A DNA stretch of 64,000 nt from contig OZ253553.1 in NCBI GenBank assembly GCA_965262715.1, forward strand, positions 1,152,001 through 1,216,000. The letters run 5' to 3'. Shown piece after piece: positions 4,383 through 45,882 of this stretch. The translations under genes and the position numbers were made by a program. How positions within the stretch are numbered: the stretch's first letter is position 1; every line of letters starts with the position of its first letter. The DNA is from Bdellovibrionales bacterium (GTDB taxonomy: Bacteria > Bdellovibrionota > Bdellovibrionia > Bdellovibrionales > JAUICD01). Below the pieces are notes generated by a model. That model was not told the origin of the DNA and did no database searches. It worked only from the letters and a program-made list of their open reading frames with translations.

Positions 4383-4845
4383 ATGGTGCACACTACACCT
4401 CTATATGCAGAAAACGTGTTCAATCCTGAGTTTTCAATGGAATCAACTACTTCTATCACATCTTTATCTATGTCTGAAAGCGTGCTCAAACAGAAATATC
4501 TCAAAAACTACCTCTCAATAAGGGAAATTGCAAAAGAATTTTCGTGCTCAAAAACCAAAATCAGAGACTTACTTTTAAAATACAAAATGCCATCAAAGAT
4601 ATGATAGTCGCACTTACGGCAAGAAAAAGATAAATGGTAAAACGATAGATCATAAAAGAGAGTTAAAAACCATTGAGACCATCAAAAAACTTTATATTAA
4701 AGGTATCAATCCAAATACAATAGCTAAGGTATTAAGCACTATGAAAATACCAACTAAACAGCATAAAAAAGAGTGGCATCATCACACAATTATCAATCTT
4801 CTTAAAAGAGAAAATATTTATAAACAAGAAAAATCAATAGCTTAG
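4383..4845 (+). pseudogene. Frameshifted copy of the HTH + recombinase-DNA-binding-domain gene
   Basis: Near-identical to 9545..10030 but with a short deletion between AAATGCCA repeats near 4590. Confidence 0.85.
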
Positions 4846-5306
4846 GAGGAAATTATGGAAACATTCATTAAAATTATTATAAACTTATCATTGATATTTG
4901 GATCAGGTTATTGTGCCAAAAAGCTTTGATGTCGAGGAAGCAACTGTTAAGAGGATTAAAAAGGCACTTTCATCATCAGAGCAATTTGCCAGAAAACTTA
5001 CTGGCACAAAACTGCCTTTCTAAAGTAGGATTTTAGTCTTGTCTAATAGAATAAAGTTTCTTTTGAAGTTCTTAACTTATAGATACACTTGTCTAAGCAA
5101 GATGAAGCAGGGAGGTTATGGGCTCTTAATATATTGAATTATCAAAGCGCATTTACAATAAGTCCCAGATAATTATTTGTATCATTGAGGTTCAATATCT
5201 TTGTAGGGAGCAAACTGTAATGCCATAAGTTCTTTATGTCGATGAGTAACTTATAGATATTAAAAAAATAATTTTTTTACAAAAATAGTTTAAAATATTA
5301 AAAAAG
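4430..5306 (+). repeat. ~900-bp direct repeat, copy 1 (copy 2 ~9590-10492)
   Basis: Near-identical by eye up to ...AAAATATTAAAAAAGC. Confidence 0.9.
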
Positions 5307-5983: not shown

Positions 5984-6340
5984 ATGAAAAAGAGAAAATA
6001 CTTTCAACATACTTTTGAATTCTTAGTTTTAGAACATAGGCCAGATGGGGAAACTGAAGGACCAGCTTCACGTATTTTGTCATGCTTGAGTTTTTCAAAA
6101 CATGGCATGAAACTTAAAGGCCAGCCAAGATATGACAGCTTTTCAGTTATAATTTCAGCACCTCAAGATGGAGCAAAGCTTAATGCTAGAGTAGAGGTTA
6201 TTAGTGGAGATAGTCACTCCTTTGGTGTGAAATTTATTGACCCCTCACCAGAACTACTTGAAAAACTTTCTTGGTGGGAAGATGATGTTAAGGCTTATCC
6301 TGCTGTATCGCCCTCCCAAAGTGTGGATATCGGCGTTTAA
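5984..6340 (+). CDS. PilZ-like domain protein
   Basis: N-terminal KRKY, LSFSKHGMKL and C-terminal FGVKF; 118 aa. Confidence 0.55.
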   Translation: MKKRKYFQHTFEFLVLEHRPDGETEGPASRILSCLSFSKHGMKLKGQPRYDSFSVIISAPQDGAKLNARVEVISGDSHSFGVKFIDPSPELLEKLSWWEDDVKAYPAVSPSQSVDIGV

Positions 6341-9260
6341 ACCAAGTTTCAATTTCTATTTGGTCTTCCTTTGGAATTGCAAAAAGATCATATATTTTTT
6401 CCCAACATTCATTCATTTCTGACTTAGCATAGTTTCCCTTATTTTTTTCTAAGAGAATGGTATCTACACTTTTTATAATATCTTTAAATTGTTCCTCAGT
6501 TGGAACCACAATTGGAATTTGTCTAATAATATCTATTTCGGTCATAACTGTATGTTGTAAAAAATTTTTAGTAAGATATCTAATAAGAGGTGAACATAAC
6601 AAACCCAATAAATATTTGGTAATAGCACCTGTCGATGGAATTATTAAACTACCTTTATCTCCAAAGACCCCTCCAAAACTTAATTCAAAGGTGGGGGCAT
6701 ACAAACCTGCTCGTGAAAATCGAATTCCAGATATGAAATAATATCTTTTGTTTTGAAAACGAGGTTTTTTAGGAGTTCCAGCAGGCCATGTATTTCTTTC
6801 CTTTAAGATAGTTACTGATTTTTTTGACCAATCAATCCAGTAATCCACCGGTGACCAAAATAATCTAAGCTCGCCCTTTTCTGTATTTTGTTCTCCTCCT
6901 TTATCGAAGGGTACAAAATATTTTTCTCGTTTTCTATCTAAAACTTTAATGCCGTTTTCTTTTTCATCAAGTGTGAGAGAAGAAATTTCACTTTGATCGA
7001 TAATACACCTAAGATCTACATCCTTAATGTATTTTCTTCGTGCATTTGGAATAACTCCTGGTGTTTTTCTAAGAAAATACTTATCATCAGCGGTAGCTAA
7101 TCCTTGCTTTACTTGAGCAACTTGCCAAAGCTTGATCATTGGGATCCATTTTTGATTTCTCTTAATTTCAAGACCTTTAATATTACCGATTTTAGGAAAA
7201 TTAATATTTTTCTTTCTTATATAATCTTTGTATTCCTTATCAACACAAAAAAGATAAAGGGATGGAAGACCTGCTACTATTGGAAAAATATGATCTTCAT
7301 GGCTAGTTAAATCAATATCTATACCTAAATTAATATCAGATAGCTTATTTTCTACTTCTTTAGGTTTGGGCGGCATCAATCTGAGATTCATTAAATGTTG
7401 AGGAAAACTATAATTTCCTAAAGATTCTTTTAAAAGGACATGATCTTTATTCTTTGACCACGCTTTCAGTGCTGTTAAAAATTCAGGTTTAGATGGGTGA
7501 ATTGGCCAAGCATCGTAAAAGTGATATAAGTGATCATTAATCTCTTTCTCTTTGGATCTCTTCGTTATGTCAAAAATACAACAGAATACATCTCGATTTG
7601 AAAAAACATTTCTGTGTAAAGTGTAGATAGATTCAATTAAACTATTGTTAAATATTTGTTTCCTTAAATTTTTATGAGTTCTATTGGTAAGAAAAGTACT
7701 GCTTAAGATAAATAACAATTTTCCTTCATTTGGAAGTATATTCAAACTTTTTGAAATAAAACAACCATAAGAGTCATTGCTCCCTACATCAAATTGATCA
7801 GCTATCTTTTTATTCACTTTGATTCCATACGGTGGATTCCCTATCACCAGATCAGGAGCAAATTTAGAAAAATTAATAAAGAATTTGTTTTCAATAAAAT
7901 CTCCCTGTTTAACAACAATAGAGAAATCAAAGTACCCATTTGGAGCAATAGCTTTCCAAAGAGCTGGAGTTTTATACAGTTCCAAAAACATACCTAGTTG
8001 AGTGGTTTGAACTGCAAATGGATCAATATCTATGGCTTTAATGTGAGAGATAGTTTTTAAATGTGCTTGTATAATCTTTTCTTTGTTACCTACTTTACCA
8101 AGATACACATTACACATTCGCTTGTAAATTTCCCTAACAAAATGTCCTGAACCACAAGCTGGCTCGAGGACTTTCTTAGACTTCCATCCGCCAAGTGCTT
8201 TTTCAGCTCTATCAACCATAGAATTAACAATAACCGGAGGAGTATAAACATTTCCAAGAGATTTCACTTGAAGATCAAGCTCTTCTGATCTAACCAGTCC
8301 ATCCCAAATATCACCAATCGGATTATCTCTATCTTCAAAAACCAATGCTTGTGTAATAGATACACTTGACATAACTTCAACAAGAAATTCCTCACAATGA
8401 CTTGAAAAGTCTAAAACATCATATGGTTCTGCTTCTAAGATACCGGGAAAACTTTCTGCATATTTTTTAAATTCCTTTTTTATAGCTTTAGGAAATGGAT
8501 TATCTTGTCTATCTGTAATGATTTTTATAAATAAAACTTTTAATGTAAGAGACAGAGCTATGCTAGAAATGACACTTCTTATGGCTGTTTCTTCAGTTGC
8601 TTTTTCCAATGTGGGATCAACAAATGACTTTCTAGTTTCTAGTACCTTTTCAAATTTAATTTTTCGTGTTTCGAGCTTAGAAGTAGAGAAAATATAACCT
8701 TCTGAAAAGTAGCTGTTAGTTAAGTCATCAAATATTTTTTCTCTTACTATTTTTAATAAGCGTATAACTTGTTTTAGAGTTAATTGCTCCGTGAGCAAAC
8801 CTGATCCTTTTTGCTCTAAGGCTTTAGACCATAGTATTTCGTCACAAGGAGTATATGAGAACTCACCTGATCGATCCTTTAATCTTTTGTACCATTGAAA
8901 ATCTTTACCATTGGAAAGAAGAGCATAAGGAGGAGGAATAGGAAAAGATTCACCTAAGCAATAATCAAACAGTTGATTTTCATCGCTCTTACTGAGTATT
9001 CGCTTTTCACTTTTTGCTTCAACTAAGAGAATGATGCCACTATCATTTTTAAAAGCTCCGTCATAAGGTCCTTTTCTTTTTCCTCTTTTATGAACCCAAG
9101 TTTGTTCATCAAAAAACCTACTTTGACGAGGAGGGTATCCTAAAGACTCTAAATGAGGGTAGATAAGTTTACTAAATGTATTAAATTCATTTTCTCTTCT
9201 AAAATTAGAAATATTAGTTTGTTGTTTTGATTTCTTCTCTTTTCCCATACCTAAGTTCAC
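6288..9260 (-). CDS. Type IIG-like fused restriction endonuclease/N6-adenine methyltransferase
   Basis: N-terminal D..VEAK nuclease and LLSNG motif, VYTP, LEPACGSGHF, GNPPY, C-terminal TRD-like region. Confidence 0.85.
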   Translation of the reverse strand: MNLGMGKEKKSKQQTNISNFRRENEFNTFSKLIYPHLESLGYPPRQSRFFDEQTWVHKRGKRKGPYDGAFKNDSGIILLVEAKSEKRILSKSDENQLFDYCLGESFPIPPPYALLSNGKDFQWYKRLKDRSGEFSYTPCDEILWSKALEQKGSGLLTEQLTLKQVIRLLKIVREKIFDDLTNSYFSEGYIFSTSKLETRKIKFEKVLETRKSFVDPTLEKATEETAIRSVISSIALSLTLKVLFIKIITDRQDNPFPKAIKKEFKKYAESFPGILEAEPYDVLDFSSHCEEFLVEVMSSVSITQALVFEDRDNPIGDIWDGLVRSEELDLQVKSLGNVYTPPVIVNSMVDRAEKALGGWKSKKVLEPACGSGHFVREIYKRMCNVYLGKVGNKEKIIQAHLKTISHIKAIDIDPFAVQTTQLGMFLELYKTPALWKAIAPNGYFDFSIVVKQGDFIENKFFINFSKFAPDLVIGNPPYGIKVNKKIADQFDVGSNDSYGCFISKSLNILPNEGKLLFILSSTFLTNRTHKNLRKQIFNNSLIESIYTLHRNVFSNRDVFCCIFDITKRSKEKEINDHLYHFYDAWPIHPSKPEFLTALKAWSKNKDHVLLKESLGNYSFPQHLMNLRLMPPKPKEVENKLSDINLGIDIDLTSHEDHIFPIVAGLPSLYLFCVDKEYKDYIRKKNINFPKIGNIKGLEIKRNQKWIPMIKLWQVAQVKQGLATADDKYFLRKTPGVIPNARRKYIKDVDLRCIIDQSEISSLTLDEKENGIKVLDRKREKYFVPFDKGGEQNTEKGELRLFWSPVDYWIDWSKKSVTILKERNTWPAGTPKKPRFQNKRYYFISGIRFSRAGLYAPTFELSFGGVFGDKGSLIIPSTGAITKYLLGLLCSPLIRYLTKNFLQHTVMTEIDIIRQIPIVVPTEEQFKDIIKSVDTILLEKNKGNYAKSEMNECWEKIYDLFAIPKEDQIEIETWFKRRYPHFGRAIQQDKP

Positions 9261-9544
9261 TATATTTCTTTTTTTATTTCATTAGAAATAATGTCAAATA
9301 TAGGAGCTGTTAAGAAGTTTTTGAATTGCTTTAAGAACTGAATTATATTTTTATTTTTGTCATCAGAAGTCTTTCTCATAAGGCTATCCTGACAATCTCA
9401 TCCTAAAAGTCAATCTAAAGCTTCATAGCATCATCCAAATCCTATCTAATTTGTTCATAACCTGCACTAAGTTCTGAATTTGTCTTTAAAGAAGACTCTT
9501 TAAATTCTCGCATATACGAGAACTTTTATTGCCCAATACGAAAA

Positions 9545-10030
9545 ATGGTGGACGCTGGCCTTCTATGGGCAAAAAACGTACTCAATCCTCAGTTTTCAAT
9601 GAAATCAACTATTTCTATCACTTCTTTACCTATTCCTGAAAGCGTACTCAAACAGAAATATCTCAAAAACTACCTCTCAATAAAAGAAATTGCAAAGGAA
9701 TTTTCGTGCTCAAAAACCAAAATCAGAGACCTACTTTTAAAATACAAAATGCCATTAAGAAAGCCTTCAAAATGCCATCAAAGATATGATAGTCGCACTT
9801 ACGGCAAGAAAAAGATAAATGGTAAAACGATAGATCACAAAAGAGAGTTAAAAACCATTGAAACCATTAAAAAGCTTTATGCTAAAGGTATCAATCCAAA
9901 TACAATAGCTAAGGTATTAAGCACTATGAAAATACCAACTAAACAGCATAAAAAAGAGTGGCATCATCACACAATTATCAATCTTCTTAAAAGAGAAAAT
10001 ATTTATAAACAAGAAAAATCAATAGCTTAG
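9545..10030 (+). CDS. HTH plus serine-recombinase 'Recombinase' DNA-binding domain protein, no catalytic domain
   Basis: LSIKEIAKEFSCSKTKIRDLL HTH; YG...E...I.KLY..G...IA..L...PT....W....I..LL pattern. Confidence 0.75.
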   Translation: MVDAGLLWAKNVLNPQFSMKSTISITSLPIPESVLKQKYLKNYLSIKEIAKEFSCSKTKIRDLLLKYKMPLRKPSKCHQRYDSRTYGKKKINGKTIDHKRELKTIETIKKLYAKGINPNTIAKVLSTMKIPTKQHKKEWHHHTIINLLKRENIYKQEKSIA

Positions 10031-10492
10031 GAGGAAATTATGGAAACATTCATTAAAATTATTATAAACTTATCATTGATATTTGGATCAGGTTATTGTG
10101 CCAAAAAGCTTTGATGTCGAGGAAGCAACTGTTAAGAGGATTAAAAAGGCACTTTCATCATCAGAGCAATTTGCCAGAAAACTTACTGACACAAAACTGC
10201 CTTTCTAAAGTAGGATTTTAGTCTTGTCTAATAGAATAAAGTTTCTTTTGAAGTTCTTAACTTATAGATACACTTGTCTAAGCAAGATGAAGCGGGGAGG
10301 TTATGGGCTCTTAATATATTGAATTATCAAAGCGCATTTACAATAAGTCCCAGATAATTATTTGTATCATTGAGGTTCAATATCTTTGTAGGGAGCAAAC
10401 TGTAATGCCATAAGTTCTTTATGTCGATGAGTAACTTATAGATATTAAAAAAATAATTTTTTTACAAAAATAGTTTAAAATATTAAAAAAGC
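9590..10492 (+). repeat. ~900-bp direct repeat, copy 2
   Basis: Matches 4430-5306. Confidence 0.9.
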
Positions 10493-10685
10493 CTAAAAAT
10501 ATGAGAAAAATTCACTTTAAAAATACTCATTATAGTGTTAAAAATACTAATAGATAAAATAATAGAGTGAAATAAAAAAAAGATTGCTTAAGAGTTTTCC
10601 AATATTACAGTGCATTAATGCAATGCACTTAGATATATAATAGTTTTTTGTAAAGCTCATATTAAAATAAAAAAATAAGGATTTT

Positions 10686-12646: not shown

Positions 12647-12694
12647 GGTTCGAATTGGTGTCACTGGTGGACACTGTCGCAACCAATTCGAACC
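12647..12694. other. attP-like serine recombinase site
   Basis: Perfect 13-bp inverted repeat GGTTCGAATTGGT/ACCAATTCGAACC centred on the GA of TGGTGGA. Confidence 0.7.
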
Positions 12695-12831
12695 CTTTCT
12701 GAAATAGATTTTGAGTTTTGCTGTCAAAGCCAAGAACTTTTTAAATACCAAGAAATTGCCCCAGTAGTTAAGAAAATACTCTCTTAATAAAAATATCCTT
12801 TTTATTTATTATAAATGAAAAAGAATAAAGT

Positions 12832-13166: not shown

Positions 13167-13340
13167 ATGGAAACATTCATTAAAATTATTATAAACTTAT
13201 CATTGATATTTGGATCAGGTTATTGTGCTAAAAAGCTTTTATTCAATATCGAGAAAGTGGCCACTAATAGGATAGAAAAAGGAGTTTCATCATCAGAAGG
13301 GCTTGCCAGAAAACTCACTGGCACAAAGTTATCTTTCTGA
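13167..13340 (+). CDS. 57-aa small protein of the repeated module (METFIK family)
   Basis: Intact paralog at 40176..40352; truncated copies at 4855 and 10040. Confidence 0.7.
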   Translation: METFIKIIINLSLIFGSGYCAKKLLFNIEKVATNRIEKGVSSSEGLARKLTGTKLSF

Positions 13341-13494: not shown

Positions 13495-13908
13495 CTACTT
13501 TTTAATAAATTTTCTTAAAAGTTGCATCCACCAAGCTGTGTTCTTTAATTTTCGTTGTATGTCGTTTTTTTTATCATGTCTATCTCTAATCCTTCCTATA
13601 TAGATTTCTTCTTCAGACCATTGCTTACACCACTCTGTCTTGCTTTCTTGGATCATATAATGGCTTTTACAAGGAAGTCTCCAGTTTCCTATTGATGGCC
13701 ATAGACTCACTGTTTCTCCATCATATTCAATTTTCCACTCGCTTCGTCCTAAAGGAAGACTTACTTCAATTCCACAACCACATGCGCATATGTGTTCAGT
13801 AAGGCGATGTTTAGTTGATATATACAACTCCCCTTCTTTCATTTTTTCCGGCATATTTTCTGTCCATATAGGATACCATGTCTTAGTTTTCATTTGATCT
13901 TTCTCCAT
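13495..13908 (-). CDS. DUF6527-like Cys/His zinc-binding protein
   Basis: HICACGCG..VSLPL...W...SLWPSIGNW...CKSHY. Confidence 0.8.
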   Translation of the reverse strand: MEKDQMKTKTWYPIWTENMPEKMKEGELYISTKHRLTEHICACGCGIEVSLPLGRSEWKIEYDGETVSLWPSIGNWRLPCKSHYMIQESKTEWCKQWSEEEIYIGRIRDRHDKKNDIQRKLKNTAWWMQLLRKFIKK

Positions 13909-13987
13909 ATCTAAGACAGATTGATATTCTTACTTGAAGTTTATATTCAATAGAATTTGTTTACTAAGGTGATGAGAATATTTCTTA

Positions 13988-15199
13988 TTACATGAATATT
14001 TTTCCAAAAGATATAGTATAATTTACTATATTATCACTCTTTTCTCGATCATTTCTATAGATTCCTTTTTTTATTTTCCACTCTATGAGAGCCAACGATG
14101 CTCCAAGCATATTTAACTCTGCTGTTTGAATGTTACTTCTATATATATCATTAACAAGCCTTTGCTCATTAGATTCTGAACCTACTTTTTTTTGTATATT
14201 TGGTACTTGATATTCTCGTTCTATTTTGACCATACCTCCGAGTTGATTATTATCTTTTCCTTCTACCTCTATTCCTATCCCTACACTCAAGTGAAATATT
14301 CCCATTTCATTACATTTTTCCTGAATTTCCCTTCGACTCTTTAAATTATCTACGGCAATAAAGACTGTTGTAAATTTTTTTAAGATATCTAGGTTGTTGC
14401 TATCAATTTTGTTTTTATATATATACAAGCCTTTTTTTCTTACATTTTTATAACGATTTTGATGCCATTCCACTTTTGTAGTATGAAGCTCGTTTTTATT
14501 TACTGCTCCAGCTAATCTAAATGCACTATCAGGTTCTATAATATCATCATCATATAAATGTAGTTCTTTAACATTTGTTTTTGCAAGTATATCAACTAAG
14601 TAAGATCCTGTGCCTCCTACTCCTATAACAGCGATTATTTCATCAGATATTTTGTCTTCTATTCCCTTTGTTCCATTGCGGTACAAACTTGTGTTCATAT
14701 ATGTAAAATTTGTATCCACATCAACTTCTGTTATTTTCCCAAGCTTTGAGGATTTTAAAATACCTGGAGTTTTACTTTCTGCATGAAAGCTAACTTCGTC
14801 TACATATGTTTTTATTTGTTCAAAATAGTCCTTGTATGATCGAAGAGTTCCTCCTTGTTTTGGCTTTCTTGACCATTTCATATATACAATAATTTCTTCT
14901 CCAAGCTGAAATCCATCAGGAAATTCTTCACAACACAATTCTTCTTTCATACTTTCTCCTTTAATAGTGTAAGGTATCTCACCGGTCCACCATACAGTAT
15001 GTTCTTTTGGTTGTTTTATTTGATTTGTAGAAGGATCAACACATAGACTTGTCACTATATCAGCTCTTTTGATTGTACTATCTTGTACTACATATAGTAT
15101 GTTTTTTGCGATTAAGTAAGCTCCGCGTATCTCTATATGATACCCTGCCTCTTTTAATCTTAACAAATCTTCACTATGACTTATCGGTGAATTTAACAT
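13988..15199 (-). CDS. ThiF/E1-like adenylyltransferase with N-terminal E2-like (DUF6791-like) domain
   Basis: IAVIGVGGTGS, LYDDD..AFR, FIAVD, NIQTAELNMLGA. Confidence 0.85.
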   Translation of the reverse strand: MLNSPISHSEDLLRLKEAGYHIEIRGAYLIAKNILYVVQDSTIKRADIVTSLCVDPSTNQIKQPKEHTVWWTGEIPYTIKGESMKEELCCEEFPDGFQLGEEIIVYMKWSRKPKQGGTLRSYKDYFEQIKTYVDEVSFHAESKTPGILKSSKLGKITEVDVDTNFTYMNTSLYRNGTKGIEDKISDEIIAVIGVGGTGSYLVDILAKTNVKELHLYDDDIIEPDSAFRLAGAVNKNELHTTKVEWHQNRYKNVRKKGLYIYKNKIDSNNLDILKKFTTVFIAVDNLKSRREIQEKCNEMGIFHLSVGIGIEVEGKDNNQLGGMVKIEREYQVPNIQKKVGSESNEQRLVNDIYRSNIQTAELNMLGASLALIEWKIKKGIYRNDREKSDNIVNYTISFGKIFM

Positions 15200-23961: not shown

Positions 23962-25974
23962 ATGGATAATTTCAATGAAAAAGTAAGTTTTATTTGGTCA
24001 GTGGCAGACTTGTTGCGTGGCCCTTACCGTCCAAATCAATATAAGAATGTAATGTTACCTCTTACAGTTTTAAGAAGACTTGATTGTGTCTTAGAACCAA
24101 CAAAAGACAAAGTTCTTGCAAAAGTAAAAACTCTAAAAGGTGGTAAGATTAAAAATCTAGAACCAATTCTCAATACAATTGCAAAGCAAAGTTTTCACAA
24201 CAAAAGCCGATTTACTTTTGAAAAATTAAAAGGCGATCCAAATAACATTGCGGCAAATCTAACAAACTATATAAAAGGTTTTTCTAAAAAAGCATTGCAG
24301 ATTATTGAGCATTTTCAATTTGAAAATCATATAGCTAAGCTTGAAAAAGCAGACCGCTTATTTCTAGTGATTTCTAAATTCTGTGATATTAACCTTCATC
24401 CTAAAAAAGTCAGTAATATTGAAATGGGCTATATATTTGAAGAACTTATTAGAAAATTTAACGAGGCAAGTAATGAAGAAGCGGGATATCATTTTACTCC
24501 TCGTGAAGTTATTCGGCTTATGGTAGATCTTATTTTTCTTCCTGATAAAGACATTCTCACAAAAAAAGGAGTGGTGAAGACTTTGTTTGATCCAGCTTGT
24601 GGTACTGGAGGAATGTTGTCTGTTTCAGAAGAATATGTGAGAGAGCTTAACCCAGATGCTCAACTTGAAGTCTTTGGTCAAGACTACAATGATCAGGCTT
24701 ATGCTGTATGTGGTTCTGATATGATGATTAAAGGTCAAGATATTGAGCACATCAAATTTGGAAATAGCTTTACTGAAGATCATTTTTTAGGAAAACAGTT
24801 TGATTATATGCTTGCCAATCCACCTTTTGGAGTAGAATGGAAACCTGAAGCTAATTTTATAAAAAAAGAATATAAAGAGCAAGGCTTTGGAGGTCGGTTT
24901 GGTGCTGGCCTTCCTCGTATTAATGATGGCTCATTATTGTTCTTACAGCATAAAATTAGTAAAATGAAATCTATCAAAGAGGGAGGCACCCGGCTAGCTA
25001 TTGTATTTAATGGATCTCCTTTATTTACAGGCAGTGCTGGTTCTGGTGAAAGTGAAATACGTTGTTGGATTATTGAAAATGACTGGTTAGAAGCCATTGT
25101 TGCGTTGCCAGATCAGCTTTTTTACAATACTGGCATTCATACCTATCTTTGGATACTTACTAATCGTAAGGAAAAGAATAGAAAGGGTAAAATTCAACTT
25201 GTTAATGCCACAAGTTTTTTTCAAAAAATGCATAAATCTTTAGGCAATAAGCGTAATGAAATTAGTGATGAATATAGAGATGAAATAACACGTATTTATG
25301 GAAAATTTACTGAAAGTGAGTATGTACGTATTTTTGATAATAAAAATTTTGGTTATCATAAGGTTACAGTTGAACGTCCTCTTAAGCTCAATTTTGCTGT
25401 CAATGATGAACGTCTTGAAAAATTGAAACAGACAGAGAAATTTAAAAAATTGGCAATTAGCAAAAAACGTAAAAATATTCAAATAGCCTCAATTGAGATT
25501 GAGAAAGGAAAAACCCTTCAAAAATCAATTTTATCTGCTCTTATTTCTTTATCTTCAAAAGATCTTATTAAGAATAGAAAACAATTCACCAAATTGATGA
25601 AATCATGTTTTCAAAAAGCTGGATTTAATCTTCAGACAAATCTTTTTAAAGCTATTCTTATGACATTAAGTGAGCGAGATGACACAGCAGATATTTGTAG
25701 AAATTTAAAAGGAGAGCCTGAATCAGATACTGAACTTAGAGATTATGAAAATGTGCCTTTAAAAGAAGATGTTCAAACTTACATGAAAAAAGAAGTTTTA
25801 CCTCATGTTCCTGATGCTTGGATCGATAAATCTAAAACTAAGGTAGGTTATGAAATCAATTTCAATCGGTATTTTTATAAATATGTTCCACCTCGTCCAT
25901 TAGAAGAGATTGAAAAAGACTTAAGAGGAGTTGAAAATGAAATTGCTTTTTTGTTGAAGAATGTGATAAAGTAA
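23962..25974 (+). CDS. hsdM: Type I restriction-modification methyltransferase
   Basis: IWSVADLLRG, HFTPREV, DPACGTGG, ANPPF. Confidence 0.95.
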   Translation: MDNFNEKVSFIWSVADLLRGPYRPNQYKNVMLPLTVLRRLDCVLEPTKDKVLAKVKTLKGGKIKNLEPILNTIAKQSFHNKSRFTFEKLKGDPNNIAANLTNYIKGFSKKALQIIEHFQFENHIAKLEKADRLFLVISKFCDINLHPKKVSNIEMGYIFEELIRKFNEASNEEAGYHFTPREVIRLMVDLIFLPDKDILTKKGVVKTLFDPACGTGGMLSVSEEYVRELNPDAQLEVFGQDYNDQAYAVCGSDMMIKGQDIEHIKFGNSFTEDHFLGKQFDYMLANPPFGVEWKPEANFIKKEYKEQGFGGRFGAGLPRINDGSLLFLQHKISKMKSIKEGGTRLAIVFNGSPLFTGSAGSGESEIRCWIIENDWLEAIVALPDQLFYNTGIHTYLWILTNRKEKNRKGKIQLVNATSFFQKMHKSLGNKRNEISDEYRDEITRIYGKFTESEYVRIFDNKNFGYHKVTVERPLKLNFAVNDERLEKLKQTEKFKKLAISKKRKNIQIASIEIEKGKTLQKSILSALISLSSKDLIKNRKQFTKLMKSCFQKAGFNLQTNLFKAILMTLSERDDTADICRNLKGEPESDTELRDYENVPLKEDVQTYMKKEVLPHVPDAWIDKSKTKVGYEINFNRYFYKYVPPRPLEEIEKDLRGVENEIAFLLKNVIK

Positions 25975-26018
25975 ATAAAAAAACTTATCATATTTTATTA
26001 TGAATGGATCAATAAGTT

Positions 26019-26486
26019 ATGAAGTTCAACACATCTTTTTTACTTATTTTAATTTCGATTACAATTGCTATAATGTTTATATATATTGGATCAAATCGTC
26101 AATTGACTACATTGGAAAATGTATTATTTCAGTTGATTATATTATCTATTGGCTTAATAGGATCATTTCTTTTTGGAAGAGTTAAGTCTAAAGAAATTGA
26201 TAAACCACGTCTAAGATCCGCTTTTCGTAGACTTATTTCTCTTTATCGAAGTCTTTCTCGTATGGCTTTTATTGTTAGTGAAAATCAAGAACGAGGAGGA
26301 CAAGAAGACAAAACAACACTTTTAAAAATTGAATCAATAATTACAGAACAAATATTTGCTGTCGATGATGCAATGTTAGATTGGTATGATATAACACCAG
26401 AAGAAGTTAAAGATTTATATAAGTCTAAAAATTTATTTTTTGATGATACTTTAAGACAAACCAAGAGGGAGTCAGATAGTGAATGA
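26019..26486 (+). CDS. Hypothetical membrane protein
   Basis: Two N-terminal hydrophobic helices. Confidence 0.7.
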   Translation: MKFNTSFLLILISITIAIMFIYIGSNRQLTTLENVLFQLIILSIGLIGSFLFGRVKSKEIDKPRLRSAFRRLISLYRSLSRMAFIVSENQERGGQEDKTTLLKIESIITEQIFAVDDAMLDWYDITPEEVKDLYKSKNLFFDDTLRQTKRESDSE

Positions 26487-26919
26487 CCTTATTCGAGGCA
26501 AGGTTGCTAAAATTCTGAACTCTCGTGAGGTGGCTATAAATATTGGTTCTCATCACGGAGTGAGAGAAGGAATGTTATTTGATATTCTTGACCTTAGTGG
26601 CAAAAATATCATAGACCCTGACACAGAAGAAAACTTAGGTTCAATTGAAAGGCCAAAAGTGAGAGTTCAAGTCAAACATATAAGAGATAATTTTTCTATT
26701 GCCTCAACATTTAAAAAAAATGAGATAAATATTGGAGGTAAAGGAGGTGGCTTTGCCTTGTTATCTAAAGCATTTCTTCCACCAAAATGGGTTACCAAGT
26801 ATGAAACATTAAAAACAGCAGATCAAACATGGGAATCTATTACAGAGGATCAGAGCTATATTAAGATTGGAGACCCCATAATTCAAGTTTTTGAAGACAA
26901 TAAAGAAAAGGTTAAGTGA
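26479..26919 (+). CDS. Hypothetical protein, FlgT C-terminal-like beta domain
   Basis: INIGSHHGVREG..F.I....IIDPDTEENLG pattern. Confidence 0.6.
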   Translation: MNDLIRGKVAKILNSREVAINIGSHHGVREGMLFDILDLSGKNIIDPDTEENLGSIERPKVRVQVKHIRDNFSIASTFKKNEINIGGKGGGFALLSKAFLPPKWVTKYETLKTADQTWESITEDQSYIKIGDPIIQVFEDNKEKVK

Positions 26920-28339
26920 GTTAATAATGATAATTTTGAAACCTTACATAGAATACAAAGATTCTGGTATAAAATGGATTGGCAATATTCCTAGTCACTG
27001 GGAGACAAATAAGTTAAAATTTTTACTATCTGAACCGTTAAAATATGGAGCAAATGAGCCTGCTGAATACGATGAACTTTCTTGGCCAAGATATATTAGA
27101 ATTACTGACATAGATGAAAAAGGTTTATTAAAAAAAAAGACTTTTAAATCCATCTCTGAAGACATTGCCTATCCTTATCTTTTAAAAGATGGAGATATAT
27201 TATTTGCACGTAGTGGTGCTACTGTAGGTAAAACTTTTTTTTATTTAAAATCATTTGGCAAATCTGCTTATGCAGGATATTTGATACGTGCAAGATTTAA
27301 AAATAAAAAAGTTTTTTCAAAATTTATTTATTACTTTTCTCGTTCTAATATCTATTGGGAATGGATTAAAAGTAATTTTATACAAGCTACTATTCAAAAT
27401 ATTAGTGCTGAAAAATATTCTAATTTATTACTTCCTCTACCTTTATCTCTTAAAGAGCAACAAGCTATTGCAAGTTATCTTGATGATAGGACAAAACAGA
27501 TTGATTCTCTTATTGAGAAGAAACAACAACAGATCAAATTACTTCAAGAAAAAAGATCAGCCCTTATTACCCATAAAGTGACCAAAGGACTTGACCCTAA
27601 AGTTAAAATGAAAGATTCTTATGTGAAGTGGCTAGGAAAAATCCCAGCACATTGGACAGCTAAAAAGCTAAAGTATTTAGCAATAGTTAATTCTAGCAAT
27701 GTTGATAAAAAAACAAAAGAACATGAAAAAGATATTTTATTATGCAATTATGTTGATGTTTATAAAAATGATTATATTGACAATGGGATTAACTTTATGA
27801 AAGCTACTGCATCAGATACTCAGATAAAAAAATTTCGACTTCAAAAAAATGATGTTATTATCACAAAAGATTCAGAATCTCCAAATGACATTGGAGTACC
27901 TGCCTTTGTCTTAAAGGATTTTGAAGATATTGTTTGCGGATATCATCTAGCTCAAATAAAACCTAAAACTATAATAGGTTCTTTTTTGTTTAGATGCTTT
28001 CAAACTAAGTGGCTTCAAGCATACTTTGAAATATCTGCCAAAGGTATTACTCGCTATGGATTAAGTGTTAGCGACATCAATTCTTCTATAATACCTATTC
28101 CTACAATAATAGACGAGCAAAAAATAATTGCTAATTTTCTTGATAAAGAAACTTCTAAAATCGATACTTTAATTTTAAAAATTAAACAATCCATACAACT
28201 TTTAAAAGAATACCGACCTGCTCTTATTACTGCTGCTGTTACAGGTAAAATAAATGTTCAGAAAAATACAGAAGTTATAAAAACCTCTAGTAAAAAAAAT
28301 AGAAAAATAAAAGAAAACTATAATGACGACACAGTATAA
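26891..28339 (+). CDS. hsdS: Type I restriction-modification specificity subunit
   Basis: Two TRDs, repeated KDS..W.G.IP.HW, EQ..IA..LD, ALIT..VT. Confidence 0.95.
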   Translation: MKTIKKRLSELIMIILKPYIEYKDSGIKWIGNIPSHWETNKLKFLLSEPLKYGANEPAEYDELSWPRYIRITDIDEKGLLKKKTFKSISEDIAYPYLLKDGDILFARSGATVGKTFFYLKSFGKSAYAGYLIRARFKNKKVFSKFIYYFSRSNIYWEWIKSNFIQATIQNISAEKYSNLLLPLPLSLKEQQAIASYLDDRTKQIDSLIEKKQQQIKLLQEKRSALITHKVTKGLDPKVKMKDSYVKWLGKIPAHWTAKKLKYLAIVNSSNVDKKTKEHEKDILLCNYVDVYKNDYIDNGINFMKATASDTQIKKFRLQKNDVIITKDSESPNDIGVPAFVLKDFEDIVCGYHLAQIKPKTIIGSFLFRCFQTKWLQAYFEISAKGITRYGLSVSDINSSIIPIPTIIDEQKIIANFLDKETSKIDTLILKIKQSIQLLKEYRPALITAAVTGKINVQKNTEVIKTSSKKNRKIKENYNDDTV

Positions 28340-31328
28340 AGAAATTGCTTTTGAAAATGTTATTGAACAGCATCTTTTAGAAAAAGGGGGCTATACCAAA
28401 GGTGATCCTAAAACCTTTAATCGTTTAAAAGGACTTGATCCAAGTGTTCTATTTGCTTTTCTAAAAGAAACTCAAGCGGAGCAATTGGCCTACATTCAAA
28501 ACCTTCAAAAGGATAAAACAGAAGATATTATTATTGAATCTTTATGTCAGGCTCTAGATTCAAAGTATGAAGGATGTCTTAAAGTTTTAAGACATGGGTT
28601 TAAATGTTTTGGAAAGCTTTTTAAAGTTGCTTATTTTGCTCCAGCCAGTGGTTTAAATCCAGATATTCAAAAACTTTATGAAAAAAACCAATTAACAGTG
28701 ACAAGACAACTTCAGTATAGCAACAGACATAAAAACTCTCTTGATATGGTCTTAAGCTTAAATGGATTACCAATTGTTACATTAGAGCTTAAAAATCCAA
28801 TAACAGGTCAAACATGGCGAAATGCCATTCATCAGTACAAACAAGATAGAGATTCAAATGAGTTGATTTTTCAATTTAAAAAGAGAACATTAGTTCACTT
28901 TGCTGTGGATACGGATGAAGTCTATATGACAACCAGACTCAATGGAGATAGAACCTTTTTTCTGCCATTTAATTTAGGGAATAATCAAGGAGCAGGAAAC
29001 CCTGAAAATTCAAAAGGCTATAAAACTTCTTACTTATGGGAGGAAATTCTTAATAGAGAAAGCTTATTAGATATACTTGCTAGATTTATCCATCTTGAAG
29101 TAGAGGAGAAAAAATTTCAGAATAGAAAAAATACAGAGGAAACGATGATATTTCCTAGATATCATCAACTTAACTGTGTAAGAAAGCTTATCGATGATGT
29201 ACAAGAAAAGAAAACAGGAACAAACTATCTCATTCAACATTCTGCTGGAAGTGGAAAAAGCAACTCCATTGCATGGTTAGCTCATCGTTTGTCAACTCTC
29301 TATGATAATGCTGATGAAAAAATATTTGATTCTGTAATTGTTATCACTGATCGTTTAGTTTTAGATCAACAACTTCAAAATACAATATATCAATTTGAGC
29401 ATAAACAAGGTGTTGTTAAAAAAGTTGATGAAGATTCAACACAGCTGGCTAAAGCTATTACTTCTTGTGACCCTATTATCATCACAACACTTCAAAAGTT
29501 TCCTTATGCTACAGAGAAAATGGAATATCTATCAAGCAAGAAGTATGCTGTCATTATTGATGAAGCTCATAGTTCACAAGGAGGTGAGTCAGCTACAAGC
29601 CTAAAAGGCCTTTTGTCAGGAACAGTTATAAAAGAGGAAGCAGAAAAACAAGCCAGAGAAGAAGGGCTTCTAGATTATGAGGAAGAAATTATACGTTCTA
29701 TGAAAAAAAGAGGTCAGCAAAAAAATATCAGTTTTTTTGCATTTACTGCAACACCTAAATATAAAACGTTAGAAATTTTTGGCAAATATGGAGAAGATGG
29801 AACTCCTAAATCATTTCATCTATATAGCATGAAGCAAGCTATTGAAGAAGGTTTTATTTTAGATGTTTTGCAATATTATACAACTTATAAGACGTATTAT
29901 CGACTTATTAAATCGATAGAAGATGACCCAGAGGTTGATAAAAGGCGAGCTGCTCGCAGTCTTGCTCGTTTTATGAGTTTACATCCACATAATATCTCTC
30001 AGAAGACAGAAATTATAGTAGAACACTTTATACATTTTACTCGTCATAAAATAGGAGGTAAAGCTAAGGCCATAGTGGTCACTTCCAGCCGTTTACATGC
30101 TGTTCGATATAAGAAGTCTTTTGATGAGTATATCAAAGATAAAAAATATCGAGGAATTAAAACTTTAGTTGCTTTCTCTGGTAGAGTTCCTGATCCTGAT
30201 ATCAAAGAAATTGAATACACTGAAGTCAGTATGAATAAAGGGATTAAAGAAAAAGAACTTCCTGGAAAGTTTGCCACTAATGAATATCAAGTTCTTCTTG
30301 TTGCAGAAAAATATCAAACAGGTTTTGATCAACCTCTCCTACATACAATGTATGTTGATAAAAAGCTCTCTGGAATTCAAGCAGTGCAAACGTTAAGCCG
30401 TTTAAATAGAACTTCTATAGGTAAGGAAGATACATTTGTACTTGATTTTGTAAATAGGCCAGAAGACATTCAGGAAGCATTTCAGCCTTACTATGAAAAA
30501 ACTCTTATCGAGGAAAGAGTCGAGGTAAAACATCTTTATGAGTTGCAATCAAGATTAGATGTTCAGCAAGTTTACTATAGAACCGAAGTGGATGAATTTT
30601 GTAGGATTTTTTATAAACCAAAGAAAAATCAAACATCCTCTGATCATGAAAGAATAAATGTTTGTATTGATCCTGCTGTTATGCGTTTTAATAAATTAGA
30701 TCAAGAAAAACAAGATGAGTTTAGAAAGTTACTTTTGTCTTTTCTTGATAATTATGCCTTTCTATCGCAAATTATCCCATTTCAAGACTCAGATCTTGAA
30801 AAGCGTTATTCTTATATACGTTTTTTACTTAAAAAATTACCTAAAAGAGAATCCGGACCAAATTATTATTTTGATAATGATATTGCACTTAAATATTATA
30901 GACTGCAAAAAATCAGCGAAGGTTCGATTCATCTTGAAGATGGAAAAGGAAGTAAGGTTTCTGGTCATGTTTCTGTGGGAGCAAGCTCTTCAAATGATGA
31001 AAAAATAGAGTTATCACAATTGATAGACATTCTTAATGAACAGTTTGGCACACAGTTTACTCAAGCAGATCAGTTATTCATAGACTCTATAGGAGAGGAA
31101 GCTGTCTCTGACCCAAAGTTAAGACAAGCAGCAAAAGCGAACTCTATGGAAAACTTTGGTTATGTTTTCCGAAAAGCTTTGGAAAAACTATTTATTGATC
31201 GCATGGAACAAAACGAAGATATTACAGCTAAGTTTATGAACGAAAAAGAATTTAAAAAAGTTATAGGAAAAGCTTTACTTGAGAGAGTTTATAAACAAAT
31301 TCACAGTGAGGATACAGACAATAATTAA
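28323..31328 (+). CDS. hsdR: Type I restriction endonuclease subunit
   Basis: ELKN, HSAGSGKS, IDEAH, FTATP, QTGFDQP. Confidence 0.95.
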   Translation: MTTQYKEIAFENVIEQHLLEKGGYTKGDPKTFNRLKGLDPSVLFAFLKETQAEQLAYIQNLQKDKTEDIIIESLCQALDSKYEGCLKVLRHGFKCFGKLFKVAYFAPASGLNPDIQKLYEKNQLTVTRQLQYSNRHKNSLDMVLSLNGLPIVTLELKNPITGQTWRNAIHQYKQDRDSNELIFQFKKRTLVHFAVDTDEVYMTTRLNGDRTFFLPFNLGNNQGAGNPENSKGYKTSYLWEEILNRESLLDILARFIHLEVEEKKFQNRKNTEETMIFPRYHQLNCVRKLIDDVQEKKTGTNYLIQHSAGSGKSNSIAWLAHRLSTLYDNADEKIFDSVIVITDRLVLDQQLQNTIYQFEHKQGVVKKVDEDSTQLAKAITSCDPIIITTLQKFPYATEKMEYLSSKKYAVIIDEAHSSQGGESATSLKGLLSGTVIKEEAEKQAREEGLLDYEEEIIRSMKKRGQQKNISFFAFTATPKYKTLEIFGKYGEDGTPKSFHLYSMKQAIEEGFILDVLQYYTTYKTYYRLIKSIEDDPEVDKRRAARSLARFMSLHPHNISQKTEIIVEHFIHFTRHKIGGKAKAIVVTSSRLHAVRYKKSFDEYIKDKKYRGIKTLVAFSGRVPDPDIKEIEYTEVSMNKGIKEKELPGKFATNEYQVLLVAEKYQTGFDQPLLHTMYVDKKLSGIQAVQTLSRLNRTSIGKEDTFVLDFVNRPEDIQEAFQPYYEKTLIEERVEVKHLYELQSRLDVQQVYYRTEVDEFCRIFYKPKKNQTSSDHERINVCIDPAVMRFNKLDQEKQDEFRKLLLSFLDNYAFLSQIIPFQDSDLEKRYSYIRFLLKKLPKRESGPNYYFDNDIALKYYRLQKISEGSIHLEDGKGSKVSGHVSVGASSSNDEKIELSQLIDILNEQFGTQFTQADQLFIDSIGEEAVSDPKLRQAAKANSMENFGYVFRKALEKLFIDRMEQNEDITAKFMNEKEFKKVIGKALLERVYKQIHSEDTDNN

Positions 31329-34928: not shown

Positions 34929-35097
34929 GCAAGGAAGTTTTCCTTAACATTATGTTAAATAAGAAGAGGTATCTGCCTTACTAAAAATAAATAGATTTTT
35001 GAGACAATGAGTATTTTATGAGAGTATTAGCCGTCATGCTCATTGTCCAAAAATGGCCAGAGGCTCGCCTCGAGAGGCCAGTTTATTTTTAGTGAAA
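34929..35097 (+). ncRNA. Putative structured element, divergent copy A
   Basis: Shared leader; closing stem ACTAAAAATAAAT/GTTTATTTTTAGT; inner GACAATGAGTAT/ATGCTCATTGTC. Confidence 0.5.
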
Positions 35098-36241: not shown

Positions 36242-36945
36242 ATGAATAGAAAAAAATAAGTCATAAAGAAATTAAAAGACTAGTGTCAAAGGTTGTTGTT
36301 GATTGTAAAAAATTAGCAGATAACTATGTTAAAAATTGGAACCCTGTAAATAAAAAATGGCCAACAATTGAAGGAGCAGTTTATTTAAGACTTTCTGATG
36401 ACACACAAGTAGCCGTAGAACATGGATCATTGGAACAACAAATTCACATTGCCATACACGAACTACTTCTAAACATATTAAAGAAAGCAATCACTCTGCT
36501 TTAATAACATCCGGCAAGTTTAATAGTGACTTTCCATTATTGGGATTTGATATCATTAAAAATGAACATGGAGAAAGTACTGGGGTTTATAAACCAAATC
36601 GTAAGGAATTAAAGCAAGTTGAATGGATTATGAAATCTTTTCTTCATACTGATAAGTACAAAACATTGCTTAATTACTGTAAGGAAAGGAATATCAAAAA
36701 CAAAAAAAATAAAGAGCAAGAATTGATGAAAGAAAGAGATCAACTCTAGTTACTTCAAAAACAGCTTTCTAATGTACAAAGCTTTGATTTTAATGAGAAA
36801 TATCTTAAAAATATAGTCAAAGCTCTTAATTATATTCATAAAAATGACCTGGTTTCTCTTAGATCTGTCTATCATAATCTATTTCAAAAGATCATTGTTC
36901 AACCTCTGGATGAATCAAAAATACAGCTTAAATTTGTCTTCAAAG
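36242..36945 (+). pseudogene. Internally deleted large serine recombinase
   Basis: AVYLRLS..GSLEQQ catalytic start, LGFD..ELKQVEWI recombinase domain, C-terminal LRSVYHNLFQKIIV..IQLKFVFK in separate frames. Confidence 0.75.
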
Positions 36946-37101
36946 TGAGCCACTTCCATCTCGACATGCTGCTATTAAACCTTGCTTGATTCCATGGCTA
37001 TGAGCTGTTCCAAAAGTTACAAGACCATTGCCAGATAAATCTAGGATAGATTGAACAGCTGCTGCATCACGTGGTGAAATTAACGATAAAATATTATTAT
37101 T

Positions 37102-39293: not shown

Positions 39294-39375
39294 AGTAAAT
39301 GAATGTAATAATTTTCTTAAACAAATATGATCTTATAAGTTTATAATACCTTAAGGTGCCATGAACCATAATTAC

Positions 39376-39490
39376 TTCAAAAGATCATTGTCCAACCTCT
39401 GGATGAATTAGAAATACAGCTTAAATTTGTCTTCAAAGAAGACCCTTCAATCTCTCGCATGTATGAAGACTTTTATTGTATATCGAGAAA
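39376..39490 (+). pseudogene. C-terminal stump of a large serine recombinase
   Basis: Repeats 36883-36945; continuation matches 9480-9545 and 53078-53132. Confidence 0.7.
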
Positions 39491-39499
39491 GCTAAAAAA

Positions 39500-39745
39500 A
39501 ATATTTCCTTAACATTATGTAAAAAAAGAAGAGTATCTGTCTACTCAAAATAAACAGATGGCAAGGATAAAGTTTCCCTAACATTGTGTTAAGAAATAAG
39601 GATATCCTCCCTACTAAAATGCATTAGGCTTTCTAGGCAGTAAGCTATTTGCCGACAGCGTAAGCCTGTCGGGCTTACTGCCAGAAAGTGACCAGAGGTC
39701 AGATGCATTTTAGGGAAACAGAAGGCTGGTTTATTTTGAGTGAGA
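39500..39745 (+). ncRNA. Two nested copies of the putative structured element
   Basis: Outer stem 39543-39555/39729-39741; inner complete copy ~39561-39718. Confidence 0.55.
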
Positions 39746-40192
39746 TTGGTGGACGCTGGCCTTCTATGGGCAAAAAACGTACTCAAACAGAAATATCTCA
39801 AAAATTACCTCTCAATAAGAGAAATTGCAAAGAAATTTTCGTGCTCAAAAACCAAAATCAGAGACCTGCTTTTAAAATACGAAATCCCATTAAGAAAACC
39901 TTCAAAATACCATCAAGGATATGATAGTCGCACTTATGGTAAGAAAAAGGTGAATGGTAAAACAGTAGATCACAAAAGAGAATTAAAAACCATTGAAACC
40001 ATCAAAGAGCTTTATCTCAAAGATATCAATCCGAATATGATAGCTAAAGTATTAAGCACTATGAAAATACCCACTAAACAGCAAAAAACAAGCTGGCATC
40101 ATCATACAATTATCAATCTTCTTAAAAGAGAAGGTCTTTATAAGCAAGAAAAAACCAACAAGTTAGGAGGGAATAATGGAAACATTTATTAA
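39740..40192 (+). CDS. HTH + recombinase-DNA-binding-domain protein (paralog of 9545..10030)
   Basis: High identity to 9545..10030 with an N-terminal deletion. Confidence 0.7.
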   Translation: MRLVDAGLLWAKNVLKQKYLKNYLSIREIAKKFSCSKTKIRDLLLKYEIPLRKPSKYHQGYDSRTYGKKKVNGKTVDHKRELKTIETIKELYLKDINPNMIAKVLSTMKIPTKQQKTSWHHHTIINLLKREGLYKQEKTNKLGGNNGNIY

Positions 40193-40352
40193 ATTTATTA
40201 TTATAAATACATCATTGATATTTGGATCAGGTTATTGTGCTAAGGAGCTTTTATTCAAAGTTGAAAAACTAGCTACTAATAGGATAGAAAAAGGGCTTTC
40301 ATCATCAGAGCAATTTGCTAGAAAACTCACTAACACAAGATTATCTTTCTGA
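40176..40352 (+). CDS. 58-aa small protein (METFIK family)
   Basis: Manual translation; AGGAGG RBS; paralog of 13167..13340. Confidence 0.7.
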   Translation: METFIKFIIINTSLIFGSGYCAKELLFKVEKLATNRIEKGLSSSEQFARKLTNTRLSF

Positions 40353-40554: not shown

Positions 40555-41253
40555 TTGGATATGCCTAAAAGACGGGACATTCGTTTTGTCTCTAAAGTTC
40601 CATCTTGTCGGTATATATTGACAAATACCTACATTTTGGAACATTATTATTCTATGGAGAGCCAGAGCCAAATAATCATAGATCTTGCTCATTCCCGTGG
40701 GCTTATCCGTCCTCGAGACCTTACTGAGCGTGGATTGCCTCGTGTTATTCTCACTCGTCTAGTACGTCAAGGGTTACTCATTCGAGTGGGAAGGGGCCTT
40801 TATGCTTTACCCAATAGACCTGTGACAGAAAATATGTCTTTAGCTGAAGTTTCTCGTAAATATCCACAAGGTATAATATGCTTGTTGTCAGCATTACGTG
40901 TACATGAACTAACCACCCAATCCCCGTTTAAAGTTTGGTTAGCTATTCCTAACAAAGCCAGATCTCCAAAAATGGAATATCCACCTCTACATATTGTGCG
41001 TTTTTCTGGAGCAGCTCTCATTGAAGGTATTGATGAACATCAGATTGAGAGTGTTTCTGTACGTATTACCAACATCGCTCGTACAGTAGCTGATTGTTTC
41101 AAGTACAGAAATAAAATTGGCCTTGATGTTGCGCTTGAGGCTTTAGAAGAAGCATGGAATAGTAAACGCACTAATATGGATGAACTTTGGCATTATGCCT
41201 CAGTATGTCGAGTAGCTAATATTATGCGTCCTTACTTAGAGAGTCTAACATGA
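40555..41253 (+). CDS. abiEi: Type IV TA antitoxin AbiEi family (start likely 40654)
   Basis: L.RVGRGLY, CLLSAL..HELTTQ.P, RTVADCFKYRNKIGLDVALEAL. Confidence 0.9.
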   Translation: MDMPKRRDIRFVSKVPSCRYILTNTYILEHYYSMESQSQIIIDLAHSRGLIRPRDLTERGLPRVILTRLVRQGLLIRVGRGLYALPNRPVTENMSLAEVSRKYPQGIICLLSALRVHELTTQSPFKVWLAIPNKARSPKMEYPPLHIVRFSGAALIEGIDEHQIESVSVRITNIARTVADCFKYRNKIGLDVALEALEEAWNSKRTNMDELWHYASVCRVANIMRPYLESLT

Positions 41254-42167: not shown

Positions 42168-42427
42168 ATTGACACAATCAAATTAAATTCTCTAAGATTA
42201 TCTATTTAGTGAACAATTGAAGTATTGTTTGAATAGTTACTGGCTTTAAGTCTTCAATTTTATGAATGAGATGGGTGCAACTTTGTTTGATTGAATCTCT
42301 GTCTATTAAAGTAAATGCCGTTTCATTCTACTTCAAACTCTGAGCAAATTAAAAGCACAACTTATGATTCACTCTTTTGAAAAATAACACTCGTTTAAAG
42401 CAAGAAAAAGGTTCGAATTGGTGTCAC

Positions 42428-42621
42428 TGGTGGACGCTACACCTCAATATGTAGAAAACGTGCTCAATCCACAGTTTTCAATGAAATCAACTATTTCCAT
42501 CGCATCCTCATCTATCTCTGAAAGCGTACTCAAACAAAAATATCTTAAAAATCACCTCTCAATAAGAGAAATTGCTAAGAAGTTTTCGTTCTCAAAAACC
42601 AAAGTCAGAAGCCTACTTTAA
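42428..42621 (+). pseudogene. Truncated HTH/recombinase-domain module gene
   Basis: Matches the N-terminal part of the 4383 and 9545 copies. Confidence 0.75.
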
Positions 42622-45433: not shown

Positions 45434-45595
45434 ACATTTCTGAAAAAATTTTCTAGATTTCACCAGAAGTGTGATATTTTATCGTAAGCCTTTATCTGCT
45501 GAGAAGTTTATTTCAGAGGATAAAAATTTCGGTATAAATTTCAGTATAAAAGGAAAGAAAAAAGTCGCCAGAGGCGAGATGCATTTTAGTGAGAT

Positions 45596-45882
45596 TGGCG
45601 GAGTAGCTGAAGTATTGGATATCTCCACTTATGACTCCAGCTATGTATCTTTATTTATTACACATTTTTTTAATACTCCAGAAAAAAAACTCTAAAATTT
45701 TACGGAAACTTTATGTTGATCTTAAGCTTTCCACTCGTGATATTGAAAGACTCACCCAATTTTCATGGTCAAAAAGCTCTATTTTAAGGGCTTTAAGAGA
45801 GCACAAAATATTTACGCACGAATTTTTAAAAAAAGAGGAAGTAATAAAAATATTCATTAAAGTTATTATAGATATATCATGA
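45596..45882 (+). pseudogene. Divergent HTH remnant following a junction core
   Basis: LRKLYVDLKLSTRDIERLT..WSKSSILRALREHKI resembles the module HTH. Confidence 0.45.

Follow-up and report, generated by a model that had tools for sequence, protein, structure and literature searches.

The tail ORF and the island array around it

An open reading frame of 161 aa lies at 9545-10030 on the plus strand of the window (the whole stretch of 64,000 nucleotides that was analysed), and it is here called an integrase tail. Its first 30 residues are a linker encoded by the P' arm, residues 31-65 form an HTH, and residues 87-149 correspond to a partial second Recombinase domain of the winged-helix type. Pfam profiling of the ORF gave Recombinase PF07508 at residues 101-152 (E 2.9e-6, above the cut-off) and HTH-type families over the N-terminal half (the best 5 of 11 families), and the predicted model, with a mean pLDDT of 88.6, is extended over residues 1-30 and folds into an HTH at 31-65 and a hairpin with three helices at 87-149. 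PF00239 was not found by Pfam in the window, and the only two PF00239 matches of the genome both lie outside it; as a stand-alone 161-aa protein without the N-terminal Resolvase catalytic domain, the product is not by itself an LSR. The first-pass annotation had described here an HTH and Recombinase protein lacking a catalytic domain and had proposed profile and structure prediction as the check, and both agree with that description.

The start of the ORF coincides with an att core, TGGTGGA, at 9546-9552 (plus strand), which is identical to the antisense 3' end of tRNA-Ala, and the crossover is predicted at about 9551-9552 from the dyad symmetry of another site at 12665. As had been noticed before, the ATG overlaps this core and is in frame with a recombinase stump ending in FYCPIRK. 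The stump (9461-9544, plus strand) is formed by the last 28 codons of an LSR, the remainder of which is deleted, with the frame open for just these 28 codons after a stop, and it doubles as the P arm of the island on the left. At 9545 two islands of a tandem array adjoin, the P arm of the first being joined to the P' arm of the second, and for this reason the stump and the tail stand in frame. A natural fusion of LSR and tail from the window's clade (P0035, partial) aligns without a break to 9467-10018, that is through stump, core and tail, at 50% identity. The junction is of the same kind as two tandem junctions of relatives (L079 and L080), but here the LSR is nearly all deleted. One contig spans the 9546 junction without differences, though it may itself be the source sample; joints were looked for in the compared contigs and none was found in them.

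The window is a decayed tandem island array beyond the 3' end of tRNA-Ala(TGC) at 53288-53363 (minus strand), which is the likely target and whose 3' end supplies the core, and a search of the genome found no intact LSR left. The LSR remains, all on the plus strand, are a relic at 36250-36968, internally deleted and frameshifted, which keeps the catalytic start, part of the recombinase domain and the coiled-coil end, a C-terminal stump or P arm at 39372-39494, and another stump or P arm at 53076-53131, which is followed by a dispersed repeat copy at 53132-53287 (53076-53287 in all). Further tails had been announced at the cores 4384, 39747 and 42428, and the cores and copies do exist there, in a damaged state. 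The copy at 4383-4844 (plus strand) has lost its frame through a deletion of 23 bp between two short repeats and belongs to a duplicate of about 950 bp that is 94% identical to 9544-10511, the copy at 39740-40192 (plus strand) is open with 22 linker residues missing, and the relic at 42427-42621 (plus strand) retains linker and HTH with a stop after 64 codons. The weaker copy suspected at 45596 is indeed an HTH relic (45596-45850, plus strand), only of a sibling, HTH-only type of tail without a Recombinase domain; the best-kept copy of this sibling type has frame 2 at its TGG core. An additional core, overlooked before, was found at 12665 in the attP-like junction of a sibling element at 12647-12695 (plus strand), which reads GGTTCGAA ... 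core 12665 ... TTCGAACC and has a T-loop-like motif 5 bp farther out than in the tRNA. The segment 12647-12790 holds a perfect attP-like dyad and then a short tail relic of a third type, and a second copy of its right arm is present at G000:C1:2037881.

A hydrophobic ORF of 57-58 aa had been reported at four places as following the tails. It is intact at 13167-13340 (57 aa, plus strand), where it comes behind only the final ~36 nt of a tail gene, and at 40176-40352 (58 aa, plus strand), where it overlaps the end of the tail. The copy at 10040-10208 (plus strand) has a strong Shine-Dalgarno and is frameshifted after codon 24, and the copy at 4855-5023 (plus strand) carries the same frameshift.

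Some other features of the genome were also recorded. A dispersed repeat of about 150 bp has about 328 copies genome-wide (286 of them at least 100 bp long), many in tandem runs and several adjoining tRNA genes, and the copies in the window are at 34935-35064, 39563-39718 (plus strand, between P arm and core), 45561-45592 and 53132-53287. The right end of this repeat resembles the end of a P arm, and at 39563 and 53132 it separates the P arm from the core; the 150-250 bp between LSR stump and core (beyond 39494 and 53131) were considered as a coding linker and rejected because they consist of this repeat. Defence cargo is present at 6288-9260, 13495-15199, 23962-31328, 40555-42167 and 47420-49863, and its types are ThiF/DUF6791 with DUF6527, AbiEi/AbiEii, Eco57I-like, and type I and BsuBI/PstI restriction-modification. 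HTH-only sibling tails, with the same small ORF after them, were found near G000:C1 41442, 54424, 91051, 947992 and 2821898. The minus strand of G000:C1 23694-95400 probably holds another tandem array, on the far side of the 3' end of the tmRNA; the same GGTTCGAATTGGTGTCAC arm adjoins the tmRNA there, and on the antisense strand lie six copies of the partner ORF together with HTH-only tails. Four tandem tRNA-like units, whose anticodon is unresolved, stand at G000:C1 2198524-2198863 directly before tRNA-Trp.

The tail family in Bdellovibrionota

The tail profile matches 151 of the 301 genomes of the phylum Bdellovibrionota, to which the present genome too probably belongs, judged by its named relatives and by Atlas clusters. 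For the survey of homologs 120 regions were fetched around tail matches and joined to six earlier loci, and after removal of one without a match 125 regions were available. A downstream tRNA or tmRNA was present in 47 of these, and in all 47 the closest such gene lies antisense and turns its 3' end toward the tail. The trinucleotide TGG was found within a 19-position window at the predicted N-terminus in 116 of the 129 homologous tails, against 26% of random windows, which is not a chance result. In relatives the LSR lies at one end of the island and reads into the antisense 3' end of the tRNA or tmRNA, and the tail starts at the other end. Just one of the 116 tails has a stop between core and HTH, in a count for which matches with good scores had been chosen.

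The arm in which the tail begins could be identified by a motif. CGAA is found at +25 in 34 of the 116 tail arms and at +24 in 7, while the T-loop of the tRNA has it at +20; the motif is not visible in the 9546 arm itself. The distal motif of LSR sites is known to lie 5 bp farther from the centre in attP than in attB (PMC11722253), and the equal shift found here therefore places the start of the tail within the P' arm of attP, the joined LSR gene carrying the same 5-bp attP/attB offset. As a separate observation, the sequence left of the tail core is identical or almost identical to that left of the tRNA core over 17 to at least 40 bases in five regions (L124, L132, L175, L139 and L094), which is unusual for serine integration and may represent insertion into a duplicated tRNA end.

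The first-pass annotation took the tail for a small protein in its own right, produced from the inserted island, an att blocker or directionality factor, with the left arm setting its start codon or a fusion. Such a protein would be in keeping with the 140-180-aa stand-alone proteins of this type that gene callers often list, with the many islands that retain an open tail without an LSR, and with the ATG, GTG or TTG present at or after the core in 28 of the 30 frame-1 tails. The frame relative to TGG varies, however, among the 116 tails (56 in frame 2, 30 in frame 1, 30 in frame 0), and among 113 short-ORF copies 35 lack any ATG, GTG or TTG ahead of the HTH. In frame 1 every base except C before TGG yields a start codon, and an A precedes TGG in 15 of the 30 frame-1 tails and in 41 of 81 others (p = 1.0); Shine-Dalgarno strength is likewise not enriched in the frame-1 tails compared with the others (p = 0.6). 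At 9545 the ATG has no Shine-Dalgarno (+2.2 kcal/mol, where the partner ORF has -9 to -11), and its position on the core is incidental. The tail is thus not a separate gene with its own translation start, as an RDF would be, and its frame follows the LSR at the far end of the island, as given in the next section. We consider a free-standing factor with its own start codon improbable. Of the proposed influence of the left arm the fusion holds and the start codon does not, and the view that expression depends on the recombination state seems to have been right.

Values of dN/dS from 0.10 to 0.33 among seven tails (one pair being saturated) show that the tail is under purifying selection. They also speak against a functionless read-through by-product or a relic of truncated recombinases, an explanation to which the present genome, with most copies decayed and the intact LSR absent, would lend itself. 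The tail is moreover present in half the phylum as counted above, it comes in addition to a complete LSR, and its frame has been maintained through at least six switches; for the family this explanation is largely refuted and has very little probability, and it applies only to the decayed copies seen here.

The partner ORF was analysed in the same regions. An ORF of 40-90 aa with a hydrophobic N-terminus comes after 48 of 130 tails (about three of these ORFs appear unrelated by eye), and it often overlaps the tail stop or starts within 25 nt, with a Shine-Dalgarno. It forms two subfamilies, 13 members of the 48-ORF set matching the 13167 protein at E <= 0.01, and among 18 copies examined in this genome 7 are behind a tail or tail end, 8 behind an HTH-only sibling and 3 behind neither. 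Its dN/dS is 0.26-0.55, and it has no family match in Pfam, PHROG or Atlas. It is a conserved and tightly coupled neighbour that encodes a small predicted membrane protein. So close a coupling would imply translation up to the tail's end, in agreement with a transcript made from the circle, and since some islands carry conjugation genes the partner protein may have a role in exclusion or transfer. Complete islands (L028, L092, L108, L111, L118 and L158) often carry a separate resolvase of about 200 aa with an HTH, some also an AAA_25 (RepA-like) gene, two regions (L180 and L178) have VirB8/9/10, coupling-protein or relaxase genes, and a 13-kb island of the window's clade (L084, 1053-10986) has a mercury-resistance operon and metal efflux genes.

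Frame agreement of tail and LSR, and natural fusions

The relation of the tail to the LSR was tested by reading frame, because, if the two are parts of one gene, the tail must have the frame in which the LSR at the opposite end of its island runs across the tRNA core. The first set was made of 15 regions with an LSR crossing the core, from which L002 was left out because its three tails are decayed. All 14 islands, each under 20 kb, were concordant, the frame of the joined circle being uninterrupted to the tail stop and 662-727 aa long wherever the LSR frame had at least 500 aa. The second set was chosen afterwards from LSR positions (3 LSR candidates scored per genome) and gave 16 further pairs, the nearest tail being used; one LSR cut by a contig end and one tail without a core were excluded, and all 14 evaluable pairs were concordant, with three cores placed by hand after automatic mapping had failed, one of which shares TGG only.

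In both sets together the LSR runs across the tRNA core, so that the att core lies inside the integrase frame, and one frame is shared across the core in 28 of 28 islands (16 in frame 2, 7 in frame 0 and 5 in frame 1) from 27 genomes and nine targets (Ala, Arg, Asn, Asp, His, Met, Pro, Val and tmRNA). The chance of concordance is about 0.42 per island and none of 200,000 shuffles was as good, although related islands are not independent in this figure. At least six frame changes are required on the tree of 24 LSRs, and the concordance is therefore not a single inherited state. The distances of LSRs and tails are weakly correlated (rho 0.24, p 0.006). L084, close kin of the LSR relic in the window, is also concordant, although its right junction is not a recognised tRNA.

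Out-of-frame cases were met where an LSR end abuts an adjacent tail, at the tandem junction L031 and the left end of L111, and in L040 the farther tail is in frame 1 against frame 2 of the LSR; foreign arms in tandem arrays can thus lie out of frame. In L031 (G010:C96) and at the left end of L111 the LSR end overlaps the tail, which may be a foreign arm or an arrangement of the frameshift type. Among 38 tRNA-bounded islands, taken from loci chosen for good tails, 24 have an open tail and no long LSR frame at the tRNA end, which leaves room for a function of the tail by itself. The idea that such islands provide a short leader in the frame of the tail was not supported, that frame being open in 9 of the 24. 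A small resolvase was also considered as the catalytic partner; it lies closely behind the tail in few loci (L006, L100, L122, L145 and L171), and the frame test favours the LSR.

Natural fusions of LSR and tail span 671-793 aa. The 752-aa fusion P0027 has PF00239, PF07508 and PF13408 (zinc ribbon) and then the tail, so that Resolvase, Recombinase, zinc ribbon and coiled coil, as in an LSR, are found in one chain of the joined gene. A 737-aa fusion (P0076) belongs to the same subfamily as the LSR relic of the window, a subfamily in which Pfam does not call the zinc ribbon, P0175 has 671 aa, and at least 4 open frames of 753-793 aa are among the 150 genome matches listed. Of 50 homologs of the LSR part of P0076, 3 end in a tail and 25 match the antisense-tRNA peptide pattern; integrated LSRs end in a short antisense-tRNA peptide. 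Tandem arrays give LSR-tail fusions in the chromosome (L078-L080), and in the tandem junctions L079 and L080 the fused tail also fits its own LSR farther on. A complex prediction of the C-terminal part of the LSR of L084 (residues 335-570) with its own tail scored 0.00 and is neutral.

The LSR gene and its attP

The agreement of frames and the natural fusions, by which the island ends rejoin in frame, make it very probable, as far as sequence comparison can tell, that these islands have an LSR gene split by its own att site. The explanation preferred here, which we hold to be somewhat better than even, is that 9545-10030 is the distal part of an LSR gene which contains its own attP and whose rejoined form is likely proficient in integration. 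With attP inside the gene, insertion into the tRNA gene parts the enzyme from the tail. Integration at the 3' end of the tRNA would leave the catalytic four-domain enzyme at one end of the island and the tail, with its HTH and second recombinase domain, at the other, and excision would give a predicted circle in which both parts are rejoined into one protein of 660-790 aa, with one transcript from the circle possibly giving the long enzyme and the small protein. Integration would then cut the enzyme back to four canonical domains with a short variable end. The tail may add DNA contacts near attP or raise the integration activity in another way, and the shortened chromosomal form may be less active, which would stabilise the inserted state as in the Mx8 tyrosine integrase. 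We favour the long form as the more active one in integration, since it is all that an incoming circle is able to encode and since the Mx8 integrase behaves in this way. The split on insertion and its reversal on excision probably switch the activity of the enzyme, and the tail may promote integration as part of a long isoform, which is the reading preferred here.

The same split gene could serve other ends. The tail may be a transcription regulator, which, fused on the circle, would act through its HTH domains to repress the promoter of the integrase or to govern transfer genes, with catalysis unchanged. Its pair of DNA-binding domains joined by a flexible linker (pTM 0.59 for the tail model), the matches of its HTH to regulators and a CRISPR-repeat binding protein, and the VirB8, VirB9, VirB10, coupling-protein or relaxase genes that some islands have upstream of the LSR would suit this role. 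The second domain, however, finds its best matches in LSR recombinase domains, which bind att DNA: among solved structures its sequence is nearest to the recombinase domain of the SPbeta integrase (E 5.7e-9), and the top Foldseek rows are also LSRs, yet weak (E 0.08 and above; fold matches at E >0.07). We regard a regulator as unlikely, though less so than the directionality role taken up next.

The directionality of LSRs is usually attributed to separate RDF proteins, which are difficult to find. The tail could be a built-in factor of this kind, favouring excision or blocking re-integration after the first circle, and inspection of the complete islands brought up no further conserved candidate for an RDF. 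LSR-tail fusions also arise in the chromosome through tandem arrays (L078-L080). Engineered C-terminal integrase-RDF fusions do act on attL x attR (PMC11722253). Against this, an incoming circle could encode the long form only, which must integrate, and known RDFs bind the integrase near its coiled coil, whereas the tail consists of DNA-binding folds; we give a built-in RDF a low probability. A broader proposal, which is tentative and rather doubtful as a whole, is that the islands can do without a separate directionality factor: their att site would toggle the two-domain tail with its coupled membrane micro-protein as a circle-only operon which sets the direction of recombination, tandem arrays would build chimeric integrase-tail enzymes in the chromosome, and the family would read the tRNA T-loop as its attB motif and would have moved among at least nine tRNA/tmRNA targets.

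The split LSR gene has several precedents. In the ssrA islands of Dehalococcoides (McMurdie 2011), which are tandem, the 3' end of the CcrB-like serine recombinase DsiB always overlaps the tmRNA att site, and the authors speculate that DsiB reaches its full form solely on the circle or next to a further island (PMC3146451). The portion of that article cited here does not identify the missing 3' fragment, whereas in the present islands it is an HTH with a second recombinase domain, frame-tested in 28 islands and nine targets. Streptococcal ICEs in rumA have att inside the integrase gene (PMC4701971); their target is a protein gene and the cited passage does not give the nature of the alternative C-terminus, whereas tRNA and tmRNA are the targets here. 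In Mx8 (Magrini 1999) attP lies inside int, and integration swaps a C-terminus of 112 aa for 13 aa with a fall of activity (PMC4701971), but this is a tyrosine recombinase, and in the present family the canonical LSR domains are left in one piece while an additional module is taken away. The 'suicidal' integrases of SSV1, pTN3 and pT26-2 are also split by their own att, and chimeric integrases from neighbouring elements are possible (PMC8371274); as described there these archaeal tyrosine recombinases are cut into two inactive halves, while in the serine recombinase found here the catalytic part remains whole, with all canonical domains on one side. Canonical LSRs such as SPbeta and LI share the catalytic, recombinase, zinc-ribbon and coiled-coil domains and the 5-bp attP/attB offset with the present family, and the second domain of the tail is homologous to their recombinase domain, but in the cited account they have a separate RDF gene and no att-encoded tail (PMC11722253). 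An att site inside an integrase gene is therefore already known, and in the open literature searched we found such precedents and no publication naming an HTH and recombinase tail.

For the phylum the finding means that a widespread family, with tails in 151 of 301 genomes, would alter its own C-terminus at each recombination event. When LSRs of this family are taken from genome sequences for use in engineering, the protein obtained would be the truncated one, which may be under-active, and many database entries called '150-aa recombinase family proteins' would be gene ends rather than genes. The tails are at the same time precise markers of island ends.
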